Shown: positions 8,956-53,480 of the stretch, one piece after another
Numbering within the stretch: position 1 is the stretch's first letter
Layout: the number at the start of each line of letters is the position of its first letter
Assembly (NCBI GenBank): GCA_035561095.1
Contig: DATMYE010000026.1
Span: 7,917-71,916, forward strand
DNA from: Clostridia bacterium
GTDB lineage: Bacteria > Bacillota > Clostridia > Christensenellales > CAG-138
DNA: 64,000 nt
Direction: 5' to 3'
Notes under the pieces: generated by a model
Seen by the model: only the letters and a program-made list of their open reading frames with translations
Database searches by the model: none
What the model was told of the DNA's origin: nothing
Program-made: the position numbers and the translations under genes

Positions 8956-9693
8956 TTAACTAATGTTTCCATTTACATTTAGTCCGTTTGAAGGTTGCTT
9001 ATTAAGCGCCTTTTCTAGTCTATCAAATGTTAAGTAAATAGATTCGAATTCTTCTTCGGTGTATACGGTCGTAGAATGAGAAATTTCATTTCTAAAATTG
9101 AAAATCGTTTCATAATCTTCTTTGAGATTCTCATCAATAGACGACAGATAGTCGCGCTTCCAATAGTAGGCATAATTATCTTCTTTAGGAGGCAACCGGC
9201 TTCTAAATAGTTGATCGAAATCTTTCCATCTAAGTAAAAAATTGGCAACATAAGTAGTGTAGCTAACTGCACGTTTGGGTTTATACTTCTCATTAAAAAG
9301 TACTTCGAATAGAGTTATAGCAGTTTCACAGTAAGATTCGACTTGAGATGCGTCTATCGTTATGCAATTACCGTTGTGATACAATTGGTTTCTTATTCTA
9401 TGATACCATTCAATATCCTCAAAAAAGACAATATCACTTAGCTCGTTGTTATATTTCTCAAGTAGATCAAGTAGACTTGAAAAGGAATTCTCAGCTTCTC
9501 CGATTTCTCTCTTTGAAGGAACATTTCGCTTTATTATTCTTCTTGGAAGCGATAAATATGTCAGGATAGATAGTTCCACCGCATTGTCAATAGAAATAAA
9601 TGCGATTCGCTTGTCGAAATCGGATTTAGTAATGATATGCTCCCAGGCATGGTCTAGCAACTCCTTCGGGCCGATAATCCAACCTTTTTTCAT
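8956..9693 (-). CDS. Hypothetical protein with two RNxxxH motifs (tandem HEPN-like), low-GC
   Basis: 245-aa ORF with AGGTGG 7 nt upstream of the ATG. RNQLYH is at residues 101-106 (nt 9376-9393) and RNEISH at residues 201-206 (nt 9076-9093), each preceded by helical-looking sequence. About 32-35% GC in sampled lines versus about 62% in the flank. The function call is inference. Confidence 0.6.
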   Translation of the reverse strand: MKKGWIIGPKELLDHAWEHIITKSDFDKRIAFISIDNAVELSILTYLSLPRRIIKRNVPSKREIGEAENSFSSLLDLLEKYNNELSDIVFFEDIEWYHRIRNQLYHNGNCITIDASQVESYCETAITLFEVLFNEKYKPKRAVSYTTYVANFLLRWKDFDQLFRSRLPPKEDNYAYYWKRDYLSSIDENLKEDYETIFNFRNEISHSTTVYTEEEFESIYLTFDRLEKALNKQPSNGLNVNGNIS

Positions 9694-9780: not shown

Positions 9781-9867
9781 TGGTGCAGGAAACAGGACTT
9801 GAACCTGCATGAGTGTGACCTCACACGGACCTGAACCGTGCGCGTCTGCCAATTCCGCCATTCCTGC
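9781..9867 (-). tRNA. tRNA-Leu (anticodon CAG), class II long variable arm, CCA encoded
   Basis: Manual fold: acceptor GCAGGAA/TTCCTGC, anticodon loop TTCAGGT, T-loop GGTTCAAGTCC. Confidence 0.9.
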
Positions 9868-9881
9868 AATGGTGAGATGAT

Positions 9882-9966
9882 TGGTGGATGGGGATGGATT
9901 CGAACCATCGAAGTCTACGACAACGGATTTACAGTCCGCTCCCTTTGGCCGCTCGGGAACCCATCC
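9882..9966 (-). tRNA. tRNA-Tyr (anticodon GTA), long variable arm, CCA encoded
   Basis: Manual fold: acceptor GGATGGG/CCCATCC, anticodon loop CTGTAAA. Confidence 0.9.
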
Positions 9967-10014
9967 ACGTAAAAGTGTGTGTGGAATCGGCTATTCACTT
10001 TTCAAGGAAAACAG

Positions 10015-10090
10015 TGGAGCTGGTGATGGGACTCGAACCCGCAACCTGCTGATTACAAATCAGCTGCTCTGCCAATTGAGCTACACCAGC
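10015..10090 (-). tRNA. tRNA-Thr (anticodon TGT), CCA encoded
   Basis: Manual fold: acceptor GCTGGTG/CACCAGC, anticodon loop TTTGTAA. There is one C.A mismatch in the T stem. Confidence 0.85.
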
Positions 10091-10099
10091 CAGCAAATC

Positions 10100-10175
10100 T
10101 GGTGCCTCAGAGTGGACTTGAACCACCGACACAGGGATTTTCAGTCCCTTGCTCTACCAGCTGAGCTACCGAGGC
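10100..10175 (-). tRNA. tRNA-Phe (anticodon GAA), CCA encoded
   Basis: Manual fold: anticodon stem-loop AGGGA-CTGAAAA-TCCCT and GGTTCAAGTCC T-arm. Confidence 0.9.
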
Positions 10176-10183
10176 AAAAATAA

Positions 10184-10260
10184 TGGCGACCCGGAGGGGG
10201 CTCGAACCCCTGACCTCCAGCGTGACAGGCTGGCGTACTAACCAACTGTACTACCGGGCC
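10184..10260 (-). tRNA. tRNA-Asp (anticodon GTC), CCA encoded
   Basis: Manual fold: anticodon stem-loop CCAGC-CTGTCAC-GCTGG. Confidence 0.9.
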
Positions 10261-10298
10261 ATAATATAAACATTGCCATCTGGCATCTCAAGCGAAAG

Positions 10299-10375
<77 letters not shown>

Positions 10376-10391
10376 AAGTACCTGAAAAAAA

Positions 10392-10466
10392 TGGTGACCC
10401 CGAGGAGAATCGAACTCCTGTTACCGCCGTGAAAGGGCGGTGTCTTGACCGCTTGACCACGGGGCC
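10392..10466 (-). tRNA. tRNA-Glu (anticodon TTC), CCA encoded
   Basis: Anticodon stem-loop CCGCC-CTTTCAC-GGCGG. Confidence 0.9.
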
Positions 10467-10471
10467 ACTTC

Positions 10472-10548
10472 TGGTCGGGGTGAAAGGATTTGAACCTTCG
10501 GCCCCATGCTCCCAAAGCACGTGCGCTACCGGACTGCGCTACACCCCG
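10472..10548 (-). tRNA. tRNA-Pro (anticodon TGG), CCA encoded
   Basis: Acceptor CGGGGTG/CACCCCG, anticodon loop TTTGGGA. Confidence 0.9.
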
Positions 10549-19192: not shown

Positions 19193-19819
19193 TTAGATCG
19201 TGCGCAGAAGGCCGATGACTTTGCCCGAGATTTCGACCTCGTCATATGGCACGTAGATCGGCTCAAACAGATCGTTCTCCGGCTGGAGCCGGACGCGATC
19301 CTTCTCGCGGAAGAAGCGTTTGACCGTCGCGCTTTCACCGTGTACGCGGGCAACGACGATATCGCCGTTGGTGCAGTTGCAATTGTGGTTGACCACGAGG
19401 ATATCCCCATCGCGAATGCCGGCGTCCCGCATACTTTCGCCGTCAACGCGGAGCATGTAAACTTCCTCAGGCTCCTTGCCGTGCATCAGCACATCAGGCA
19501 GCGGAAATGCGTCTTCGATATTTTCCGCGGCGAGCATGGGAAGACCAGCCGCAACGCGGCCGACGAGCGGAACCGCATACTGCTTTTCTTCGCGCTCCGG
19601 TAAGAGGTCTGTGTTGATGAACACGGCGCGCTGCTTGGAAGAATCGCGCGTGATCAGGCCGCGTTTTTCTAAATTCCGCAGGTGCGTGTGCACCGTTGCC
19701 GTCGATTTAAGGCCAACCGCGGCGCAGATTTCCCGCACCGAAGGCGGATAGGCATGCTCCTCGGTGAATGAGATCATATAATCGAGAATCACCTGCTGGG
19801 GATCGGCTAGTTTCTTCAT
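19193..19819 (-). CDS. lexA: SOS repressor LexA
   Basis: Winged-helix N-terminus (PPSVREICAAVGLKSTATVHTHLRNLEKRGLI) and an S24 peptidase domain with GESM and VKRF. Confidence 0.95.
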   Translation of the reverse strand: MKKLADPQQVILDYMISFTEEHAYPPSVREICAAVGLKSTATVHTHLRNLEKRGLITRDSSKQRAVFINTDLLPEREEKQYAVPLVGRVAAGLPMLAAENIEDAFPLPDVLMHGKEPEEVYMLRVDGESMRDAGIRDGDILVVNHNCNCTNGDIVVARVHGESATVKRFFREKDRVRLQPENDLFEPIYVPYDEVEISGKVIGLLRTI

Positions 19820-19853: not shown

Positions 19854-19882
19854 TTGACTTTGAATTGATTTTATCATATACT
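19854..19882 (+). promoter_or_regulatory. Promoter of the Cys-rich ORF divergent from lexA
   Basis: TTGACT-17 nt-TATACT. Confidence 0.65.
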
Positions 19883-19897
19883 GCAAAATATTGCAAA
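19868..19897 (-). promoter_or_regulatory. Candidate lexA promoter
   Basis: Minus strand TTTGCA-18 nt-TAAAAT. The -35 is embedded in the SOS box. Confidence 0.5.
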
Positions 19898-19907
19898 CAT
19901 ATGTTCG
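19894..19907. promoter_or_regulatory. LexA (Cheo/SOS) box
   Basis: CAAACATATGTTCG differs by one mismatch from the Firmicute palindrome CGAACATATGTTCG. Confidence 0.75.
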
Positions 19908-19925
19908 GAAGACTGGTGAATTTTT

Positions 19926-20255
19926 TTGAAACGTTGTGTTTTACAAGCTGATAAGGTTTGCAACGACTGTGGAACGTGCGACGACCGCTGCGAACTCGAT
20001 CCAAATAAGATTTGCGACAATTGCTTTCGTTGCCTCGACGAGGGGATAGAGGCATTTGCGCAGATTCCGATCTCCGGCGTGTTCCTCGATGATGACTTTG
20101 TGCCTGAGCAGGAAGCAGAGCCAGAGGAGGACGATCCGGATGACGGGTTTGTGCCGGATCTTTACGACGACTGGAAGGACGAGGACATCGTTCACGCGCA
20201 AACGCTGCCTATGACTTATGGCGCTCGCGTTCGCCGCGCACACCAAAGGCACTAA
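19926..20255 (+). CDS. Cys-rich (CX2CX2CX3C + CX2CX2C) small protein with acidic tail; putative SOS-regulated
   Basis: 109 codons from a TTG start, with GGTGA 6 nt upstream. Eight Cys lie in the first 36 aa, followed by an acidic stretch EQEAEPEEDDPDDGFVPDLYDDWKDED. There is no in-frame ATG near the 5' end. Confidence 0.55.
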   Translation: MKRCVLQADKVCNDCGTCDDRCELDPNKICDNCFRCLDEGIEAFAQIPISGVFLDDDFVPEQEAEPEEDDPDDGFVPDLYDDWKDEDIVHAQTLPMTYGARVRRAHQRH

Positions 20256-21298
20256 TCCTCGCGCAGTTTGATCTTTTTTGCCGCGATGCGTTTGTGCTCC
20301 TCGCTGGATGCGGCGTAATGCTTCCGCGTCGTGTTGACGTCCTTGTGGCCGAGCACATCCGCCACAAGATAGATGTCCTCTGTCTCGTGATAGAGCATGG
20401 TGCCGTAGGTGCTTCTGAGTTTATGCGGCGTGATCTTCTTGAGCGGCGTCGCAAGCTGCGCATACTTTTTGACCAGCAGCTCAACCGAGCGCACATTGAT
20501 TCGACGCAGCTGCATCGAGAGAAACAGCGCGCGTTCATGCCCCAGAAGGGGAGAGAGCTTCTCGCGAACCGCGTAGTAATCCGAGAGTGCGGTATGCACC
20601 TCGTCTCCAAAGTTGAGAATATCCTCGTTGCCGCCTTTGCGCGTGACGACGAACGCATTGTTGTCGAAGTCGATGTCGTTTAGATCGATGCCGACCAGCT
20701 CGCTGATGCGGATGCCTGTACCGAGAAAGAGCGTCAGGATTGCGACATCGCGAATCTTGGTCGTTTCGTGGTAGGCTTTCTGCCGGTCGGTGAGGCCTTC
20801 GCCGTTTTCCGCAAGGTCGAGTAAATCCGCGACTTCATTTGGCTCCAACCGGATGATCGCTTTTTCGTTGAGCTTCGGGATATCGACAAGCGCCGCCACG
20901 TTGGTCGGCAGATACTCCTGTTTGTGCAGGAACTTGAAGAACGAACGAAGCGACGAGAGCTTTCTCGCTTTTGCGCGCTCTTGATTGACCCATTCACGGT
21001 CGCCTTTCTGATAAAACGAGACCTCCGACAAATACAGCTCAATATGGTAAGCCTGAATCTTCTCAAAATCACCCGCGGTGAGGGAGGGGATGGCTTTTCC
21101 TATAAAGAGGTCCTCCTGCTGCGCGGCAAACTGGAAGAACCCGCGCAGGTCTACCGCGTAGGCGTAGCGCGTCAGAACGGAAGTCTGGCTGTCGACCGCG
21201 CGAAAAAATGTTCCGCAGAGCACGGGAAGCTCGGTGAGCAGCGCGCGGATTTTAAGCGTATAATCTTTATTGAGCGCTGCATGGTAGGAGTTTGCCAT
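20252..21298 (-). CDS. Tyrosine recombinase, Xer family (XerS-like length and architecture)
   Basis: 348 aa. Catalytic-region motifs GIRISE, HKLRSTYG, LGHKDVNTTRKHY. SD GAGG lies 9 nt upstream. Confidence 0.9.
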   Translation of the reverse strand: MANSYHAALNKDYTLKIRALLTELPVLCGTFFRAVDSQTSVLTRYAYAVDLRGFFQFAAQQEDLFIGKAIPSLTAGDFEKIQAYHIELYLSEVSFYQKGDREWVNQERAKARKLSSLRSFFKFLHKQEYLPTNVAALVDIPKLNEKAIIRLEPNEVADLLDLAENGEGLTDRQKAYHETTKIRDVAILTLFLGTGIRISELVGIDLNDIDFDNNAFVVTRKGGNEDILNFGDEVHTALSDYYAVREKLSPLLGHERALFLSMQLRRINVRSVELLVKKYAQLATPLKKITPHKLRSTYGTMLYHETEDIYLVADVLGHKDVNTTRKHYAASSEEHKRIAAKKIKLRED

Positions 21299-21346: not shown

Positions 21347-21380
21347 AACTATTCGTTAAAGACAAGTTTAACGAATAGTT
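21347..21380. repeat. Perfect inverted repeat 14-6-14 upstream of the recombinase gene
   Basis: AACTATTCGTTAAA-gacaag-TTTAACGAATAGTT. It overlaps the best xer promoter on the minus strand (TTGTCT-17-TATGAT) and lies 21 nt after the rnhA stop. Confidence 0.9.
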
Positions 21381-35767: not shown

Positions 35768-37687
35768 TTATTCATCATCGTCTGTCGTGAGCGCGCTGAC
35801 CTCGAACTCCGCCTGCTCCCAGTCGCTGTAGCAGGTTTCAACCAACTGCCGCTGCGCATCCAGTTCCGCATAGACGGTTTTCGCCGCCTCAAAATCGCTC
35901 GCAATCTGCGGATCGAACGCCTTCCCCTGCAGCGCTTTGAGCTTCGCTTCTTCGGTGTGGACGCGTTCCTCCGCCTTGCGCAGCGCGGATTTTGCTTTGA
36001 CGAGTGCGCTTTTGCGCTCTTTGGCGAGTTGATAGTCGTTCTTGCTGACAGGTGCTTCCTTTTCCTTCGGCGCGGTGCTTTCCGCGAGAAATTCCTTATA
36101 CGCGTCCCAGTCGCCTTCAAACTCGCGCATGCCGTCCTCGTCCATGATGATGATCCGGTCGGCGATACGGTTTGCAAGATAGCGGTCGTGGGTGACGATC
36201 AGCATCGTTCCGCCGTAGTCGCTGAGTGCACCTTCGAGCGCTTCGCAGGACGGGATGTCGAGGTGGTTGGTCGGCTCGTCGAGAAAGAGCACGTTGCTGC
36301 CGTTGAGCATGAGCTTGAGCAGCTGGATGCGCGCGTATTCCCCGCCGGAGAGATCGCTCATGTGTTTGAATACATCGTCCCCGCGGAATAGAAACGAACC
36401 CAGCATGTTTCTCAGCTGCTTGGTGTCAAAGCGCGGGAACATGCCGTTGAGCGCTTCCAGCACTGTGCGCGGATCGTTCGGGCGAATCGATCCCTGCTCG
36501 TAGTAGCCGACGTGCACGTTGGAGCCGAGTTTATAGCTGCCGGAATCCGGCTCAATCTTGTTGGTGAGTATCTTGAGCAGTGTAGTTTTGCCGCAGCCGT
36601 TTGCGCCCAATAGACACACTTTCTCGTCGCGCCGGATCATCAAATCGAGGCTGCGGAAGATCTCCCGCTCGCCGAAGCGCTTGCTCAAATCCTTGCAGAC
36701 GACGACTTCGTTTGCGGTCAGTGCGTCTGCCCTGAGGTGAAAGTGAATCCCCTCCGGCGCGTCCTCCGGCTTGACAAGCGTGCTCTTGATGCGCTCGATC
36801 TGCTTCTCCTTCGAGGCGATGGTAACGTAGTTGCGCGCCTGGTTCCATCTGCGCTGCTGCTCGATGATGCCTTCAATGCGCTTGATCTCGCGCAGGGTGT
36901 TTTGGTATTTCCGCATGGCGAACTCGCGCTCATCCATCTTCTTTTCCATGGACTGGGTGTAGTTGCCGGAAAATTGGTTCATCGAGCCGTTTTCCAGCTC
37001 GAAGATGCGGTTGCAGACACGATCCAGAAAATAGCGGTCGTGGGAAATCAGCACAAACGCACCGCGAAACGCCGAAAGATAGGACTCCAGCCACTCCAGA
37101 GACGCAATGTCAAGGTGGTTTGTCGGCTCGTCGAGCAGAAGAAGATCGGCATCCGACAGCAGAATCTTCGCAAGCGACGCTTTGCGCATTTGTCCGCCGC
37201 TCATCACGGAGATCGGCTGCTCAAGCTGCGCTTCTGAAAAGCCGAGGCCAAGCAAGGTTGAACGCGTGCGCGCGCGGTAGGTCAATCCCCCGTCGGCGGT
37301 GTATCGATCCTGCAAATCCGCCTGTCTGCGGATGAGCGATTCGCTTGCGCCCTGTTGCTCAATCTTCTCGGCGATCTCGTGCAGCTCGCGCTCCGCGCGC
37401 ATCCATTTGCCGCTGGCTTCGAGCACGGCTTCGTAGAGTGTTTGACCGTTGCCCCAGTTCGGGCTTTGATCCAGCATCGCAACCGATGCGTTTTTTGTAA
37501 CGGAAAGCTGGCCGCGTCCGTCATGCGGCTCCAGCCCTGCAATCATGCGCATCAGTGTGCTCTTGCCGCAGCCATTGACCCCGACGAGGCCGACGTGATC
37601 CTGCTCAAACACATCAAACGCGATATCTGAAAATAAGGTTCTCTCTCCGAAGCTCTTCTCAAGCTCCTGCGCGTGAATCAGCGACAT
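35768..37687 (-). CDS. ABC-F family ATPase (translation factor type, no TM domain)
   Basis: Two ABC cassettes (GVNGCGKST/LSGGQ and GANGCGKTT/LSGGE) and a C-terminal coiled coil. Start trimmed to the ATG at 37687, with GGAG 9 nt upstream. Confidence 0.9.
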   Translation of the reverse strand: MSLIHAQELEKSFGERTLFSDIAFDVFEQDHVGLVGVNGCGKSTLMRMIAGLEPHDGRGQLSVTKNASVAMLDQSPNWGNGQTLYEAVLEASGKWMRAERELHEIAEKIEQQGASESLIRRQADLQDRYTADGGLTYRARTRSTLLGLGFSEAQLEQPISVMSGGQMRKASLAKILLSDADLLLLDEPTNHLDIASLEWLESYLSAFRGAFVLISHDRYFLDRVCNRIFELENGSMNQFSGNYTQSMEKKMDEREFAMRKYQNTLREIKRIEGIIEQQRRWNQARNYVTIASKEKQIERIKSTLVKPEDAPEGIHFHLRADALTANEVVVCKDLSKRFGEREIFRSLDLMIRRDEKVCLLGANGCGKTTLLKILTNKIEPDSGSYKLGSNVHVGYYEQGSIRPNDPRTVLEALNGMFPRFDTKQLRNMLGSFLFRGDDVFKHMSDLSGGEYARIQLLKLMLNGSNVLFLDEPTNHLDIPSCEALEGALSDYGGTMLIVTHDRYLANRIADRIIIMDEDGMREFEGDWDAYKEFLAESTAPKEKEAPVSKNDYQLAKERKSALVKAKSALRKAEERVHTEEAKLKALQGKAFDPQIASDFEAAKTVYAELDAQRQLVETCYSDWEQAEFEVSALTTDDDE

Positions 37688-37716
37688 CGTGTTGTTCTCC
37701 AATAGTAAGACAGTTT

Positions 37717-37745
37717 ATTTTACCATAGCGAACACGTATTTGCAA
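37717..37745 (-). promoter_or_regulatory. Candidate ABC-F promoter
   Basis: Minus strand TTGCAA-17 nt-TAAAAT with an extended TG. Confidence 0.55.
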
Positions 37746-50295: not shown

Positions 50296-53118
50296 TTATA
50301 AATCGTCCCGTTCCACAATCTCGAGAAACAGTTCCGCGATCTTCGGATCGAACTGTGTGCCCGCGTTCCTGCGGATCTCCTCCATCGCTTCCGCGGGGGG
50401 AAGAGCCTTGCGGTAGATGCGGTCTTCCGTCATCGCGTCGTAGGCGTCCGCAACGGCGAGGATGCGCGAGAGAAGCGGAATCTTCTCGCCAGCAAGATGG
50501 TTGGGGTATCCGCTTCCGTCCCAGCGCTCATGATGCGTCAGAATCAGCTCTGCGATCGGCGCAAAATCGGGCGAGGACATCGCGATGCGATAGCCGATCT
50601 CCGGATGCGTCTTCATGACGACGAACTCTTCCGGCGTCAGCGGGCCGGGTTTGTTGAGAATCTGATCGCTGATGCCGATTTTCCCGATATCGTGCAGATA
50701 CGCAAACAATCTTAGCCGGTCGATATCGTCATGCGACAAACTCAGCTTTGCGCCGACGTTTGCGCAGAGATCGCCGATGCGCTTTGCATGCTCTTCTGTT
50801 TCAAAGCTGCGCGCAAACAGCGTCGCCATAATGGACGAAAGCACGGCGTTGTGATGACTCTTTTGATCGAATAACTTACGCCTCGCCATATTTGCCTCTG
50901 CATTGCGCGTTACACAAGCGAGATCATCCTCCGGCAAATCCTTTGTGTTGCCGCCGATGGAGATGTTGATAATCATCGTCTTGTCCTGCAGCACGGAGTT
51001 ATAGTGGTCAAACGCTTCTTTGAGCGCTTGCATGCGCTCCACGCAACCATGTTTATCGGTGTTTGGCAAAAGCAGTCCGAATTCATCCCCGCCGATTCGC
51101 GCGACAACCTCCTTCGGCAGGATGTTTGCCTTGATGAGCGCAGCTGTGGTTTGAATCATACGATCGCCCACATCATAACCGAACGCGTCGTTGATCAGCT
51201 TCAGGCCGTTGATATCGACAAAAACGACAGAGAGCGGCAGAGAGGATTCTTTGTTCAGTAACCTCTTCATGTTGTCGTAATGCAGCCGATTATGAAGCCC
51301 CGTCAATTGATCGTGGTTGCTTAGATACTGAATCTGCAAAAACTGAAGCTTGGATTTTGTGATATCGACGATGATGCCTTCGAGCGCTACGATCTTCCCG
51401 GTTTCGTCAGGTATGCCCTGGTTGATATCGAGCACCCATTTCCGTTCACCGGATGCCGTCAGAATTTCATACTCAAACTGATTTCCTTCATGTTCCGAGA
51501 GGTGTGTCAGGCTGTCTTCCCAGACGAGTTCGCGATACTCCGGACAGATGATATCGTTGAACGAAAGGACATTGTTGTTGATAAACTCTTCCGGATAATA
51601 CCCCGTGAGTTCAAAGCAGCCGGACGACGCAAAATAGATCGTCCAGCTTCTGTCATAAGCACAGCGGTACGCCATGCCGGGCAGGTTTGAAAGCAGTACG
51701 CTCTTGCTGCGCTCGCTTTCCTGCAAAGCCTTCATGGTCTCTCGAAGGTCGGTGACGTCCACACCGGCAGAGAGGATACCGGAGAGCTCCCCATTCACAT
51801 CCCGCAGCATCGTATTACGCCACTCGATCGTACGTTTCTCGTTGGTTGCGGTTATGATTGCATTTTCGTGCAGATCTGTGGTTGTGACATTGCCCTGATA
51901 AATGTTGCTCAGCAGTTCATATACACCTTGACGCTCTGCCTCCGGAACAAAGCGCTCAATCCAAAGCTCGCCGATGATCTGTTCTTTGGGCAACCCCAAT
52001 ATATCGCATCCGCATTGGTTGATCATCGTGACGCGGCCAACTCGATCAAACGCAACAAAGATCACTGCGGCAATTTCGAAATATGTCTGCGCGCGATCGC
52101 GTTCTTGAATTACGGTTGCTTCGGTTTGCTTGCGCTGGGTGATATCGCGCGAAATGCCGCCGACACCGCGTTTGTTATCCGCCATCTCCACGGGGAAAAT
52201 AATCGTTTCGAAATACTTTCCATCGTTTGTGTCTTCAATATAGAGTGGTTTGCCGCTGATCAATACACTCTTGTCGCGGGATTCCCAGAGCTGCGCGTCC
52301 GGCCCGGGCTTAATCTGGCTGAGCTGCTTGCCGAGGAGTTCCTCCTCCGAAACGCCGTAATAGCGCTGCATGTTGGAGTTGACCGCAATATAATGCAGCG
52401 AACTGTCTTTCATATACACAAGATCATAACTGGAGTTGAGAAATGTTTTGTAGATCGTTTCATTCTCTTTCGCCGCCTGCTGCGCCTTGACGCGTTCTGT
52501 GATATCCTGCAATGTTCCGAATACAAGCGGATAACCGGATGTTTTCTGGATCACGGCTTGAAAACGAACCTGTACGGTCCGCTCCGGCGCATTTGTCTGC
52601 AGCACACGGCACTCAAAAGAAGCGGAAGATCCGCGCATGGAGACATCTCTTGTTATTTGATACACGCGATCACGATCGTCGATATGAATATGGCGCATGA
52701 GCGTTTCATACGCAATGGGCAGCTGCGATTCATCCAGATCCAGAATGCGCAGCGCCTCTTCAGAAAACTGGAACGTTGTCGAATCCGCGTCATAGGAAAA
52801 GTTTCCGATATGCGCAATCCGCTGCGCTTCCTTCAGCGTAGCTTCGTTCTTGATGCGGCTGCTGCTTTCGTTGTAGATTTTACGAAGATTTGTGTAGACG
52901 AGAATGAAGATTAAAATCGCAGTGGCGGTCACAAACCCCATCCCTTTGGAGATGCTGATCATGAAGATCTCCGGGGTTTCGGGCTGCGTACTGGCGAGAA
53001 CGAGTTCTGAACCAATGATCCAGATATATCCGACGATCGCGTAGACAGCCGTGATGAGAAGCGATCTGCCAAGAGCGCTTCCCGACTTCTGGGTTCGCTT
53101 TTCGAAGGATTCTATCAT
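50296..53118 (-). CDS. Membrane-anchored multi-PAS sensor with GGDEF and HD-GYP domains
   Basis: N-terminal TM helices, several PAS-like repeats, RIGGDEFGLL, and HDIGK plus HHERWDGSGYP. Confidence 0.9.
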   Translation of the reverse strand: MIESFEKRTQKSGSALGRSLLITAVYAIVGYIWIIGSELVLASTQPETPEIFMISISKGMGFVTATAILIFILVYTNLRKIYNESSSRIKNEATLKEAQRIAHIGNFSYDADSTTFQFSEEALRILDLDESQLPIAYETLMRHIHIDDRDRVYQITRDVSMRGSSASFECRVLQTNAPERTVQVRFQAVIQKTSGYPLVFGTLQDITERVKAQQAAKENETIYKTFLNSSYDLVYMKDSSLHYIAVNSNMQRYYGVSEEELLGKQLSQIKPGPDAQLWESRDKSVLISGKPLYIEDTNDGKYFETIIFPVEMADNKRGVGGISRDITQRKQTEATVIQERDRAQTYFEIAAVIFVAFDRVGRVTMINQCGCDILGLPKEQIIGELWIERFVPEAERQGVYELLSNIYQGNVTTTDLHENAIITATNEKRTIEWRNTMLRDVNGELSGILSAGVDVTDLRETMKALQESERSKSVLLSNLPGMAYRCAYDRSWTIYFASSGCFELTGYYPEEFINNNVLSFNDIICPEYRELVWEDSLTHLSEHEGNQFEYEILTASGERKWVLDINQGIPDETGKIVALEGIIVDITKSKLQFLQIQYLSNHDQLTGLHNRLHYDNMKRLLNKESSLPLSVVFVDINGLKLINDAFGYDVGDRMIQTTAALIKANILPKEVVARIGGDEFGLLLPNTDKHGCVERMQALKEAFDHYNSVLQDKTMIINISIGGNTKDLPEDDLACVTRNAEANMARRKLFDQKSHHNAVLSSIMATLFARSFETEEHAKRIGDLCANVGAKLSLSHDDIDRLRLFAYLHDIGKIGISDQILNKPGPLTPEEFVVMKTHPEIGYRIAMSSPDFAPIAELILTHHERWDGSGYPNHLAGEKIPLLSRILAVADAYDAMTEDRIYRKALPPAEAMEEIRRNAGTQFDPKIAELFLEIVERDDL

Positions 53119-53267: not shown

Positions 53268-53480
53268 TTAGCCGATATAAGTGAAACGAACGTAAGTTTT
53301 TCCGTCCCGTTCCACCGTTTCGTTCCACATCGAGGCAGGGCGCACCCATACCCCGTGTTCTCCATAGAGCGCGCGGTATACAACCATCGGTTCCTGCGTT
53401 TCGGAATGCTTGGCGAGATAAAGCACCTCGTACTCGTTTCCTTTGAAATGGCGATACCGCCCGATTTTGATCTCTTCCAT
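53268..53480 (-). CDS. DUF1653 family small protein
   Basis: GRYRHFKGNEYEVL...VVYRALYG pattern. Confidence 0.8.
   Translation of the reverse strand: MEEIKIGRYRHFKGNEYEVLYLAKHSETQEPMVVYRALYGEHGVWVRPASMWNETVERDGKTYVRFTYIG

Follow-up and report, generated by a model that had tools for sequence, protein, structure and literature searches.

The stretch of DNA analyzed here, hereafter the window, comprises 64,000 nucleotides of contig DATMYE010000026.1 from a Clostridia bacterium of the Christensenellales. At positions 19926 to 20255 it carries a small open reading frame (ORF) for a Cys-rich protein of 109 residues, which reads away from lexA and faces a convergent gene for an Xer-like tyrosine recombinase (xer). 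Based on sequence comparison, the locus is a lexA-divergent and putatively LexA-gated small gene that encodes a previously undescribed protein family. The elements of lexA, the ORF, and the region between them are as follows.

19193-19819, minus strand: lexA, 208 aa, with LexA_DNA_bind (PF01726) and Peptidase_S24 (PF00717) domains (TIGR00498, 206.5 bits against a cutoff of 110.95)
19854-19882, plus strand: predicted sigma-70-type promoter of the ORF, TTGACT (19854-19859), 17-nt spacer, TATACT (19877-19882)
19868-19896, minus strand: lexA promoter from a promoter scan, -35 TTGCAA (19896-19891), 17-nt spacer, -10 TAAAAT (19873-19868)
19894-19907, no strand assigned: predicted LexA operator, CAAACATATGTTCG on the plus strand, with the core GAACATATGTTT on the lexA strand at 19895-19906 (conservation and consensus match)
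19915-19919, plus strand: ribosome-binding site GGTGA, 6 nt before the TTG start; GACTGGTGA is kept in relatives
19926-20255, plus strand: gene for the tandem-Cys4 mini-protein, 109 aa, TTG start (aligned with ATG or GTG in relatives)

Control region between lexA and the Cys-rich ORF

The divergent gene is a genuine lexA as judged by its TIGR00498 score, in agreement with an earlier note on this DNA that placed the ORF divergently from lexA. The DNA-binding and S24 domains of the product were both intact in Pfam and NCBIfam scans, and its sequence shows VAAG at the Ala-Gly cleavage site as well as the motifs of the catalytic Ser (GESM) and Lys (VKRF). The spacer between lexA and the ORF is 106 nt long in the window. 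The promoter of the ORF, recovered at the coordinates at which it had been noticed before, agrees with the consensus at 10 of 12 positions, and its -35 and -10 elements are kept in most of 34 orthologous intergenic regions. Promoter-like sites in the 2.3-kb region numbered five against 1.5 expected. The -10 element of the lexA promoter is TATACT or TAAAAT on the minus strand in relatives. The two promoters overlap back to back, with the predicted transcription starts (plus strand, about 19889; minus strand, about 19861) about 28 nt apart and pointing away from each other.

The predicted operator, which begins 12 nt past the -10 element TATACT and spans roughly +5 to +18 of the ORF promoter, overlaps the -35 element of the lexA promoter. 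The earlier note had located this 14-mer correctly, but had given it one mismatch to the consensus; the mismatch exists only against the palindrome of Bacillus subtilis, whereas GAACATATGTTT on the lexA strand matches the clostridial consensus GAACnnnnGTTT exactly (GAAC-N4-GTTT). Operators of the clostridial consensus form are bound by LexA of Clostridioides difficile (PMC4234289). The invariant A that replaces the G of the B. subtilis palindrome also creates this TTGCAA -35 element.

The sequence GAACN4GTTY was not enriched in the window (three found against 4.3 expected), and by this count alone the operator is compatible with chance; its predicted significance comes from conservation. Of 34 distinct intergenic regions, 33 have ATTGCAAACATATGTTCG unchanged and one has two changes in the spacer, while the adjoining positions vary. 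Although the intergenic regions of relatives range from 75 to 386 nt, both promoters and the operator are kept as a module while the lexA 5' untranslated region varies, and insertions are confined to the latter. An exact GAAC-N4-GTTY was found in 60 of 73 distinct spacers between lexA and the ORF, always in the same orientation and in most cases at a distance of 31-32 nt upstream of the ORF start; this is so even where LexA is only about 50% identical. The locus combines three features used for assignment to the LexA regulon: a GAAC-N4-GTT[CT] match, a position at which a bound repressor would occlude RNA polymerase or hinder its clearance from the promoter of the ORF, and a phylogenetic footprint.

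Because of this architecture and the phylogenetic footprinting, the predicted control of both lexA and the ORF by LexA through one site is well supported, in line with the earlier proposal that a single LexA site could gate both genes. Repression of the Cys-rich ORF by LexA is, as predicted from the same features, very likely.

Two additional LexA-box-like sequences were observed in the window, both intergenic and within chance expectation. One is GCAAATACGTGTTCG at 37729-37743, which lies 27 nt upstream of a gene for a 644-aa protein with an ABC-type ATPase-like N-terminal sequence (35768-37702, minus strand); the other is GAACGTAAGTTT at 53288-53299, between the genes at 53118 and 53355.

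Conservation of the Cys-rich ORF

The first database search with the product of 19926-20255 yielded 79 homologues of about 108 residues with 43-99% identity, all unnamed and without Pfam domains. In an alignment of 59 sequences, all eight Cys residues are invariant together with R21, P26, K28, N32, F34, L37, T93, L94, and R101. The overall ratio of nonsynonymous to synonymous substitution rates (dN/dS) was 0.05-0.19 in pairwise comparison with 12 orthologues, against which dS ranged from 0.7 to saturation. When the estimates were made by segment, 28 of the 29 that could be computed were below 0.35, including those for the acidic linker and the tail, the exception being one C-terminal value of 0.66; the ratio of 0.10-0.25 for the acidic linker indicates purifying selection. 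The alternative raised in the earlier note, that the ORF might be unconserved or under neutral substitution in relatives, is contradicted by these homologues and these ratios. The ribosome-binding site and the 109-codon frame lie exactly where they had been described, and the ORF is almost certainly a real conserved gene.

Architecture of the mini-protein

The protein can be divided into the following segments.

19935-19979, plus strand: Cys4 repeat 1, residues 4-18, CVLQADKVCNDCGTC (Cys invariant in 59 sequences; repeat logo and hhalign)
19989-20033, plus strand: Cys4 repeat 2, residues 22-36, CELDPNKICDNCFRC (most conserved part of the family; the sole repeat in some members)
20091-20189, plus strand: acidic linker, residues 56-88, 17 D/E and 1 K/R, with a PDLYDDW motif (purifying selection)
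20190-20252, plus strand: basic C-terminal tail, residues 89-109, TLPMTYGARVRRAHQRH (T93, L94, and R101 invariant)

The composition reported in the earlier note was reproduced in each respect: eight Cys within the first 36 residues (positions 4, 12, 15, 18, 22, 30, 33, and 36), a strongly acidic stretch, which corresponds to the linker above, and no hydrophobic segment. The isoelectric point is 4.19, the grand average of hydropathy is -0.71, and the maximum 19-residue Kyte-Doolittle mean is 1.04, and no membrane segment was detected by this hydropathy analysis. The Cys residues form a tandem repeat, C4-x7-C12-x2-C15-x2-C18, a linker, and C22-x7-C30-x2-C33-x2-C36. The two repeats align with an hhalign probability of 97.9% and also have non-Cys positions in common (C-h-L-x3-K-[VI]-C-[DN]-[DN]-C-x2-C). 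The linker between them varies from one to four residues across the family, and a dozen members, including those of loci L045 and L047, retain only the second repeat. Each repeat is thus probably a self-contained Cys4 metal site, giving two independent sites in the window protein, and as the predicted ligand Zn is slightly favored over Fe-S.

A conserved strand, IPISGV, comes after the knuckles. In a second AlphaFold model, the predicted local distance difference test score was 77-85 for residues 1-20 and 41-60, and the tail was modeled with low confidence. The PDLYDDW motif is related to a recurrent Trp module, DPxLxxxWExxL, of longer family members, and the tail motif h-G-x-R-[KR]-R-R, represented by TYGARVRR in the window protein, recurs in distant members. 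The acidic, Trp-containing linker and the Arg-rich end look like a partner-binding tail.

His/Cys/Asp-rich low-complexity tracts were gained independently at N-terminal, internal, or C-terminal positions in several members (P0146, P0154, P0197, P0165, P0214, P0225, and the ORF of L096). Such tracts are typical of metal-binding or metallochaperone tails and would fit a metal-dependent protein. Another member, P0224 (129 aa), is without the first Cys of repeat 1; at its N terminus it has a FeoB cytosolic helical domain (PF17910, E 6.6e-13), either fused or mis-called.

Distribution of the family and similarity searches

An exhaustive profile search gave 407 cluster representatives at 50% identity, and a search with a profile of diverse members gave 2,012 clusters at 90% identity. 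The members are small (55-150 aa) and all unannotated, and almost all are from uncultured Clostridia, the hosts being Christensenellaceae, Oscillospiraceae-like bacteria, Feifaniaceae, and metagenome-assembled genomes (MAGs) of "Eubacteriales." Look-ups of the clusters of relatives returned only "hypothetical protein" entries from MAGs. Neither for the window protein nor for distant relatives did Pfam, NCBIfam, and PHROGs scans give a significant match, and the best match in a PDB sequence profile search had an E value of 1.6 (9.3 for the ferredoxin 1fca). In a literature search, no description of a Cys-rich lexA-divergent gene in Clostridia was found.

Two candidate identities were considered and rejected. 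DUF1289 (PF06945, the putative Fe-S YdhL family) scored 11.6 bits with the window protein and at most 15.1 with relatives against a gathering threshold of 27, and the Cys register that it implies clashes with the members that have repeat 2 only. Mimicry of the FtsZ C-terminal peptide by the TLPxTYGxRVRR tail was not supported either, the tail consensus h-G-x-R-[KR]-R-R being without the D-[IL]-P-x-F-L core. By inspection of the protein, no convincing match to an SSB tail or a clamp-binding motif was found.

Gene neighborhood among relatives

The neighborhood was compared in a sample of 137 loci with 123 distinct products, in which relatives of the window protein are overrepresented. The genes next to the ORF were distributed as follows.

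Upstream, divergent lexA: 76 of 116 informative loci
Upstream, co-directional ynbB: 26 of 116
Upstream, another arrangement: 14 of 116
Downstream, convergent xer: 94 of 111 informative loci
Downstream, co-directional xer: 9 of 111
Downstream, another arrangement: 8 of 111

The ORF tracks xer (103 of 111, 93%) more tightly than lexA (76 of 116, 66%). Among species-representative loci, the convergent xer was present downstream in all 47 and the divergent lexA upstream in 43. The lexA-divergent position is kept by distant members (61, 119, and 152 aa), and when look-ups were anchored on xer, two of three recovered both the Cys-rich ORF and lexA, and one neither. Conservation of the ORF with a LexA box divergent from lexA, which the earlier note had proposed as a check, holds for the 60 of 73 spacers described above and fails for the 26 of 116 loci without lexA and the operator. 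Examples of this ynbB class (ynbB being of the Met_gamma_lyase family), in which lexA is missing from the locus and no LexA box is present, are L096, L073, L089, L113, L125, L045, and L047. The ORF of this class is apparently read within a predicted miaA-ynbB housekeeping operon.

Xer-like recombinase, dif-like site, and putative replication terminus

Two features were identified beyond the ORF.

20252-21298, minus strand: Xer-like tyrosine recombinase, 348 aa, convergent with the ORF (PF00589; best NCBIfam match, XerS)
21347-21380, no strand assigned: dif-like site AACTATTCGTTAAA-GACAAG-TTTAACGAATAGTT, with perfect 14-nt inverted arms and a 6-nt center, 49 nt upstream of the xer start

The recombinase scored below all Xer equivalog cutoffs (XerS, 181.5 against 267; XerC, 161.5 against 335; XerD, 148.1 against 330) and is, by these profiles, Xer-like but unclassified. 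The dif-like palindrome occurs once in the window. It is identical in most relatives, and where a locus extends upstream of xer, an identical, near-identical, or compensated site is almost always present; in distant relatives the arms change symmetrically to TTCGCAAAA...TTTTGCGAA or TTGCGTTAAA...TTTAACGCAA. The site always adjoins the xer start, even where the xer module is inverted and the site lies between the Cys-rich ORF and xer. Positive GC skew extends to about 20 kb of the window, and beyond about 22 kb the skew is mostly negative; its sign switches at 20-22 kb, where the flanking genes also change strand, from mutS, mutL, miaA, and ynbB (plus) to xer, rnhA, proC, and valS (minus). The 20-22 kb region thus fits a replication terminus, which would place lexA and the Cys-rich ORF there. 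A palindrome with a short center, linkage to a recombinase gene, and location at a GC-skew switch, the marks of single-recombinase Xer/dif systems, are found together at this locus, which looks like the signature of a candidate single-Xer dif system at the terminus. For Clostridia, we could find no description of a single-recombinase Xer system with such a dif-type site. In a study of gut metagenomes, COG4974 (CodV/Xer) was listed as a candidate new SOS cluster of orthologous groups (COG) in Firmicutes (PMC3998124); this signal may stem from the present locus, the small ORF without a COG having been overlooked.

The stop codons of the ORF (plus) and the recombinase gene (minus) overlap by 4 nt at 20252-20255, and the same overlap was observed in many relatives. 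No terminator was predicted on either strand between the ORF and xer (fold z-score -0.68). Convergent transcription, or antisense interference with xer on induction, is possible. At locus L035 (4382-4841), an insertion of about 430 bp lies between a partial dif-like copy (AACTATTCGTTAA) and the complete site and resembles a small Xer-integrated element of the type of integrative mobile elements exploiting Xer (IMEX).

Elsewhere in the window, at 8956-9693 and 9781-10548, a low-GC3 gene (GC content at third codon positions 0.33 against about 0.7 elsewhere) and eight clustered tRNA genes (Leu, Tyr, Thr, Phe, Asp, Met, Glu, and Pro) were observed side by side. The low-GC3 gene is possibly of foreign origin and inserted next to the tRNA genes.

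Possible function of the mini-protein

YneA of B. subtilis and Listeria, SosA of Staphylococcus aureus, and ChiZ (Rv2719c) of Mycobacterium tuberculosis are SOS-induced division inhibitors encoded divergently from lexA. The best overall explanation of the present locus is that a LexA-gated, soluble, acidic metalloprotein acts as a damage-induced adaptor or inhibitor, and this explanation is given about an even chance. In the undamaged cell, a LexA dimer on the single operator would hold down both the ORF and lexA, and upon DNA damage, RecA-stimulated self-cleavage of LexA would free both genes together. This gating step, which was deduced from architecture and conservation, is the best-supported part of the explanation. 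The N-terminal part of the protein (residues 1-55) would consist of the tandem C-x7-C-x2-C-x2-C knuckles, with an autonomous metal site of four Cys in each, followed by the IPISGV beta-strand, and the acidic, Trp- and Arg-rich tail would bind a partner. The damage-induced adaptor or inhibitor might then bind a protein or nucleic acid and delay septation or the resolution of the terminus and chromosome dimers, a role that is weakly supported.

A role in the cell cycle or at the terminus is suggested by the position of the ORF, which occupies the same lexA-divergent slot as the YneA-type inhibitors and neighbors an Xer recombinase gene with a dif-like site. A late cell-cycle or terminus-directed SOS effector, including a version specific to Xer, is accordingly a tentative proposal, held at well below an even chance. 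More doubtful is the narrower proposal of a soluble metal-site SOS checkpoint effector of a new kind, of which the tail would hold back septation or FtsK/Xer dimer resolution; it is with the same doubt that this effector is proposed for the many Clostridia (Christensenellales, Oscillospiraceae-like bacteria, and other gut and digester lineages) that have no YneA-type inhibitor in the slot. The metal site might render such a checkpoint redox- or metal-sensitive.

Several observations weigh against an SOS effector. The operator could serve purely for lexA autoregulation, the ORF being affected incidentally. The searches gave no structural or sequence similarity to characterized proteins, so that it is the position of the ORF that argues for an effector. 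In the 26 of 116 relatives without lexA or the operator at the locus, the ORF has the same orientation as ynbB and starts 9-54 nt past its stop codon, implying that the family works also without SOS control; a potent or obligate division inhibitor is then unlikely, unless it is regulated after translation. The region as a whole (miaA, ynbB, lexA, xer, rnhA, and proC) is strongly syntenic, the adjacency of the ORF to xer and dif may be historical rather than functional, and one xer/dif locus (L140) is without the ORF. The possible functions were ranked in the order of a late cell-cycle or terminus-directed SOS effector, a housekeeping partner of YnbB, an accessory factor of Xer/dif, and a ferredoxin-like redox protein.

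The second of these, an unlikely one, is a housekeeping metal or sulfur partner of the pyridoxal phosphate (PLP) enzyme YnbB or of the miaA-hfq-ynbB operon, with the LexA operator as a by-product of the lexA control region. It would account for the 26 relatives just mentioned, in which the ORF has a ribosome-binding site but neither promoter nor operator of its own, and the repeatedly gained His/Cys-rich tracts suggest the handling of metal. YnbB belongs to the Cys/Met PLP family (PF06838), some members of which release sulfide. The clade of the window, however, has its own conserved promoter, ribosome-binding site, and fixed spacing from operator to start, which indicate selection on LexA-gated expression; in addition, a lexA-linked member without an adjacent ynbB exists (L053), and the acidic and basic tail has no link to sulfur transfer.

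Still less probable is an activator or inhibitor of the adjacent Xer-like recombinase at the dif-like site, which would tune dimer resolution or the integration of Xer-exploiting elements during SOS. Chromosome dimers are produced by SOS-induced recombination, and there are examples of small factors that activate Xer, among them XafT of TLC-phi. The ORF adjoins xer more often than lexA, as counted above, and was recovered by two of the three xer-anchored look-ups. The adjacency outlasts inversion of the xer-dif module: nine products have a co-directional xer, and in L077, L105, L126, L129, and L134, where a dif-like site was found, the interval from the ORF stop to the xer start contains it. 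The flagging of COG4974 recombinases as candidate SOS genes in gut metagenomes (PMC3998124) points in the same direction. On the other hand, the ORF and xer are mostly convergent and not co-transcribed, and the linkage may be inherited with the whole syntenic neighborhood. Besides the xer/dif locus without the ORF (L140), ORFs without an adjacent xer were found (L053, L086-L088, and L135-L136), and the presence or absence of the tail is uncorrelated with xer adjacency.

It is improbable that the protein is a miniature of the ferredoxin type ([4Fe-4S] or 2x[4Fe-4S]) that carries electrons or senses redox state, for example by donating electrons to a repair enzyme or by sensing oxidants. The earlier note had taken CX2CX2CX3C as the classic 4Fe-4S spacing, and repeat 1 is indeed ferredoxin-like in its C-x2-C-G-x-C (Gly in 88% of sequences), with the x3 spacing to the next Cys in the clade of the window. 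Weak sub-threshold hits to Fer4_10, Fer4_6, and DUF1289 were also obtained, the anaerobic hosts are rich in Fe-S proteins, and each C-x7-C-x2-C-x2-C unit is compatible with Fe-S by sequence. The 4Fe-4S reading is nevertheless not supported. The Fer4 hidden Markov models (HMMs), though sensitive to the motif, gave no hit for the window protein and nothing better than E 0.3-0.7, below cutoffs, for relatives. The spacing from the third to the fourth Cys of the supposed motif is the linker of one to four residues between the tandem repeats, and Pro is not next to the fourth Cys. The two motifs are 8 residues apart against about 18-30 in ferredoxins, and the second is without a following fourth Cys. 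Since the linker is variable and the members with repeat 2 only imply a self-contained four-Cys site per repeat, CX2CX2CX3C is best regarded as a by-product of repeat juxtaposition in the clade of the window.

Finally, that the ORF is untranslated and the region is a lexA-divergent leader or a transcript antisense to xer is highly improbable, since the TTG start of the window and the lack of a terminator before the xer 3' end, by which transcription probably runs antisense into xer, are outweighed by the strong purifying selection on the protein frame, the invariant Cys residues, the conserved ribosome-binding site with ATG starts among relatives, and the sharing of the domain by about 2,000 protein clusters.

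To our knowledge, the SOS division inhibitors of Gram-positive bacteria are known only as poorly conserved, membrane-anchored proteins encoded beside lexA, and there are large groups of anaerobic Clostridia for which we know of none, among them Christensenellaceae and other lineages that abound in the gut and in digesters. If the present locus encodes a damage-induced adaptor or inhibitor, it would be a concrete and widespread candidate for the inhibitor in those Clostridia, with about 2,000 clusters and no annotation, and its regulatory module is well defined, conserved, and testable by simple assays. The mini-protein also defines a compact new predicted metal-binding repeat, C-x7-C-x2-C-x2-C. 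If it were only a housekeeping metal protein, the finding would shrink to a new domain family that shares the lexA control region. The recombinase and its covarying palindrome resemble an undescribed candidate single-Xer/dif system of Clostridia, and a dif-like locus at the skew switch should be useful for finding termini in MAGs.

Comparison with known systems

The gene for the mini-protein is like those for YneA, SosA, and ChiZ in that it is small, reads away from lexA, and has a predicted LexA operator in the common control region. In Clostridium thermocellum, the lexA-divergent slot is occupied by a YneA-like gene with LysM (PMC8457756). As the earlier note had anticipated, the mini-protein is itself unrelated to the YneA/SosA/ChiZ group: it has no transmembrane segment, LysM or extracellular domain, sequence similarity to these proteins, or match in Pfam, NCBIfam, and PDB, but is predicted to be cytoplasmic, acidic, and Cys-rich. 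Some members of its family are, in addition, unlinked to lexA.

With SulA, the soluble SOS-induced FtsZ inhibitor of Escherichia coli, the mini-protein shares solubility, a predicted LexA operator, and candidacy as a checkpoint effector, but it is about 60 residues shorter, predicted to bind metal, and without a match to SulA or any other family in Pfam.

DinI is a modulator of RecA with an acidic helix, and YacG is an inhibitor of gyrase with a Cys4 zinc finger and an acidic Trp tail. The mini-protein may resemble both in design, being very small with an acidic tail that could serve for a DNA-handling enzyme, and YacG also in the Cys4 knuckle and the tail Trp. No homology to either was found in Pfam, NCBIfam, and PDB sequence searches, however, and the Cys pattern differs (tandem C-x7-C-x2-C-x2-C), making the likeness a functional analogy only.

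The clostridial 2x[4Fe-4S] ferredoxins (Fer4) are likewise short proteins with eight Cys and a local C-x2-C-G-x-C-x3-C, from which the family departs by the mismatch to the HMMs, the unconserved spacing, the closeness of the motifs, and the members with a single repeat.

As to the neighboring recombination module, the recombinase scores below the cutoffs, and the site (34 bp, 14-nt arms) differs in sequence and length from difSL of streptococci and difH of Helicobacter and Campylobacter. With XerS/difSL and XerH/difH it nevertheless has in common one linked recombinase gene, a palindrome with a 6-nt center, and location at a GC-skew switch.

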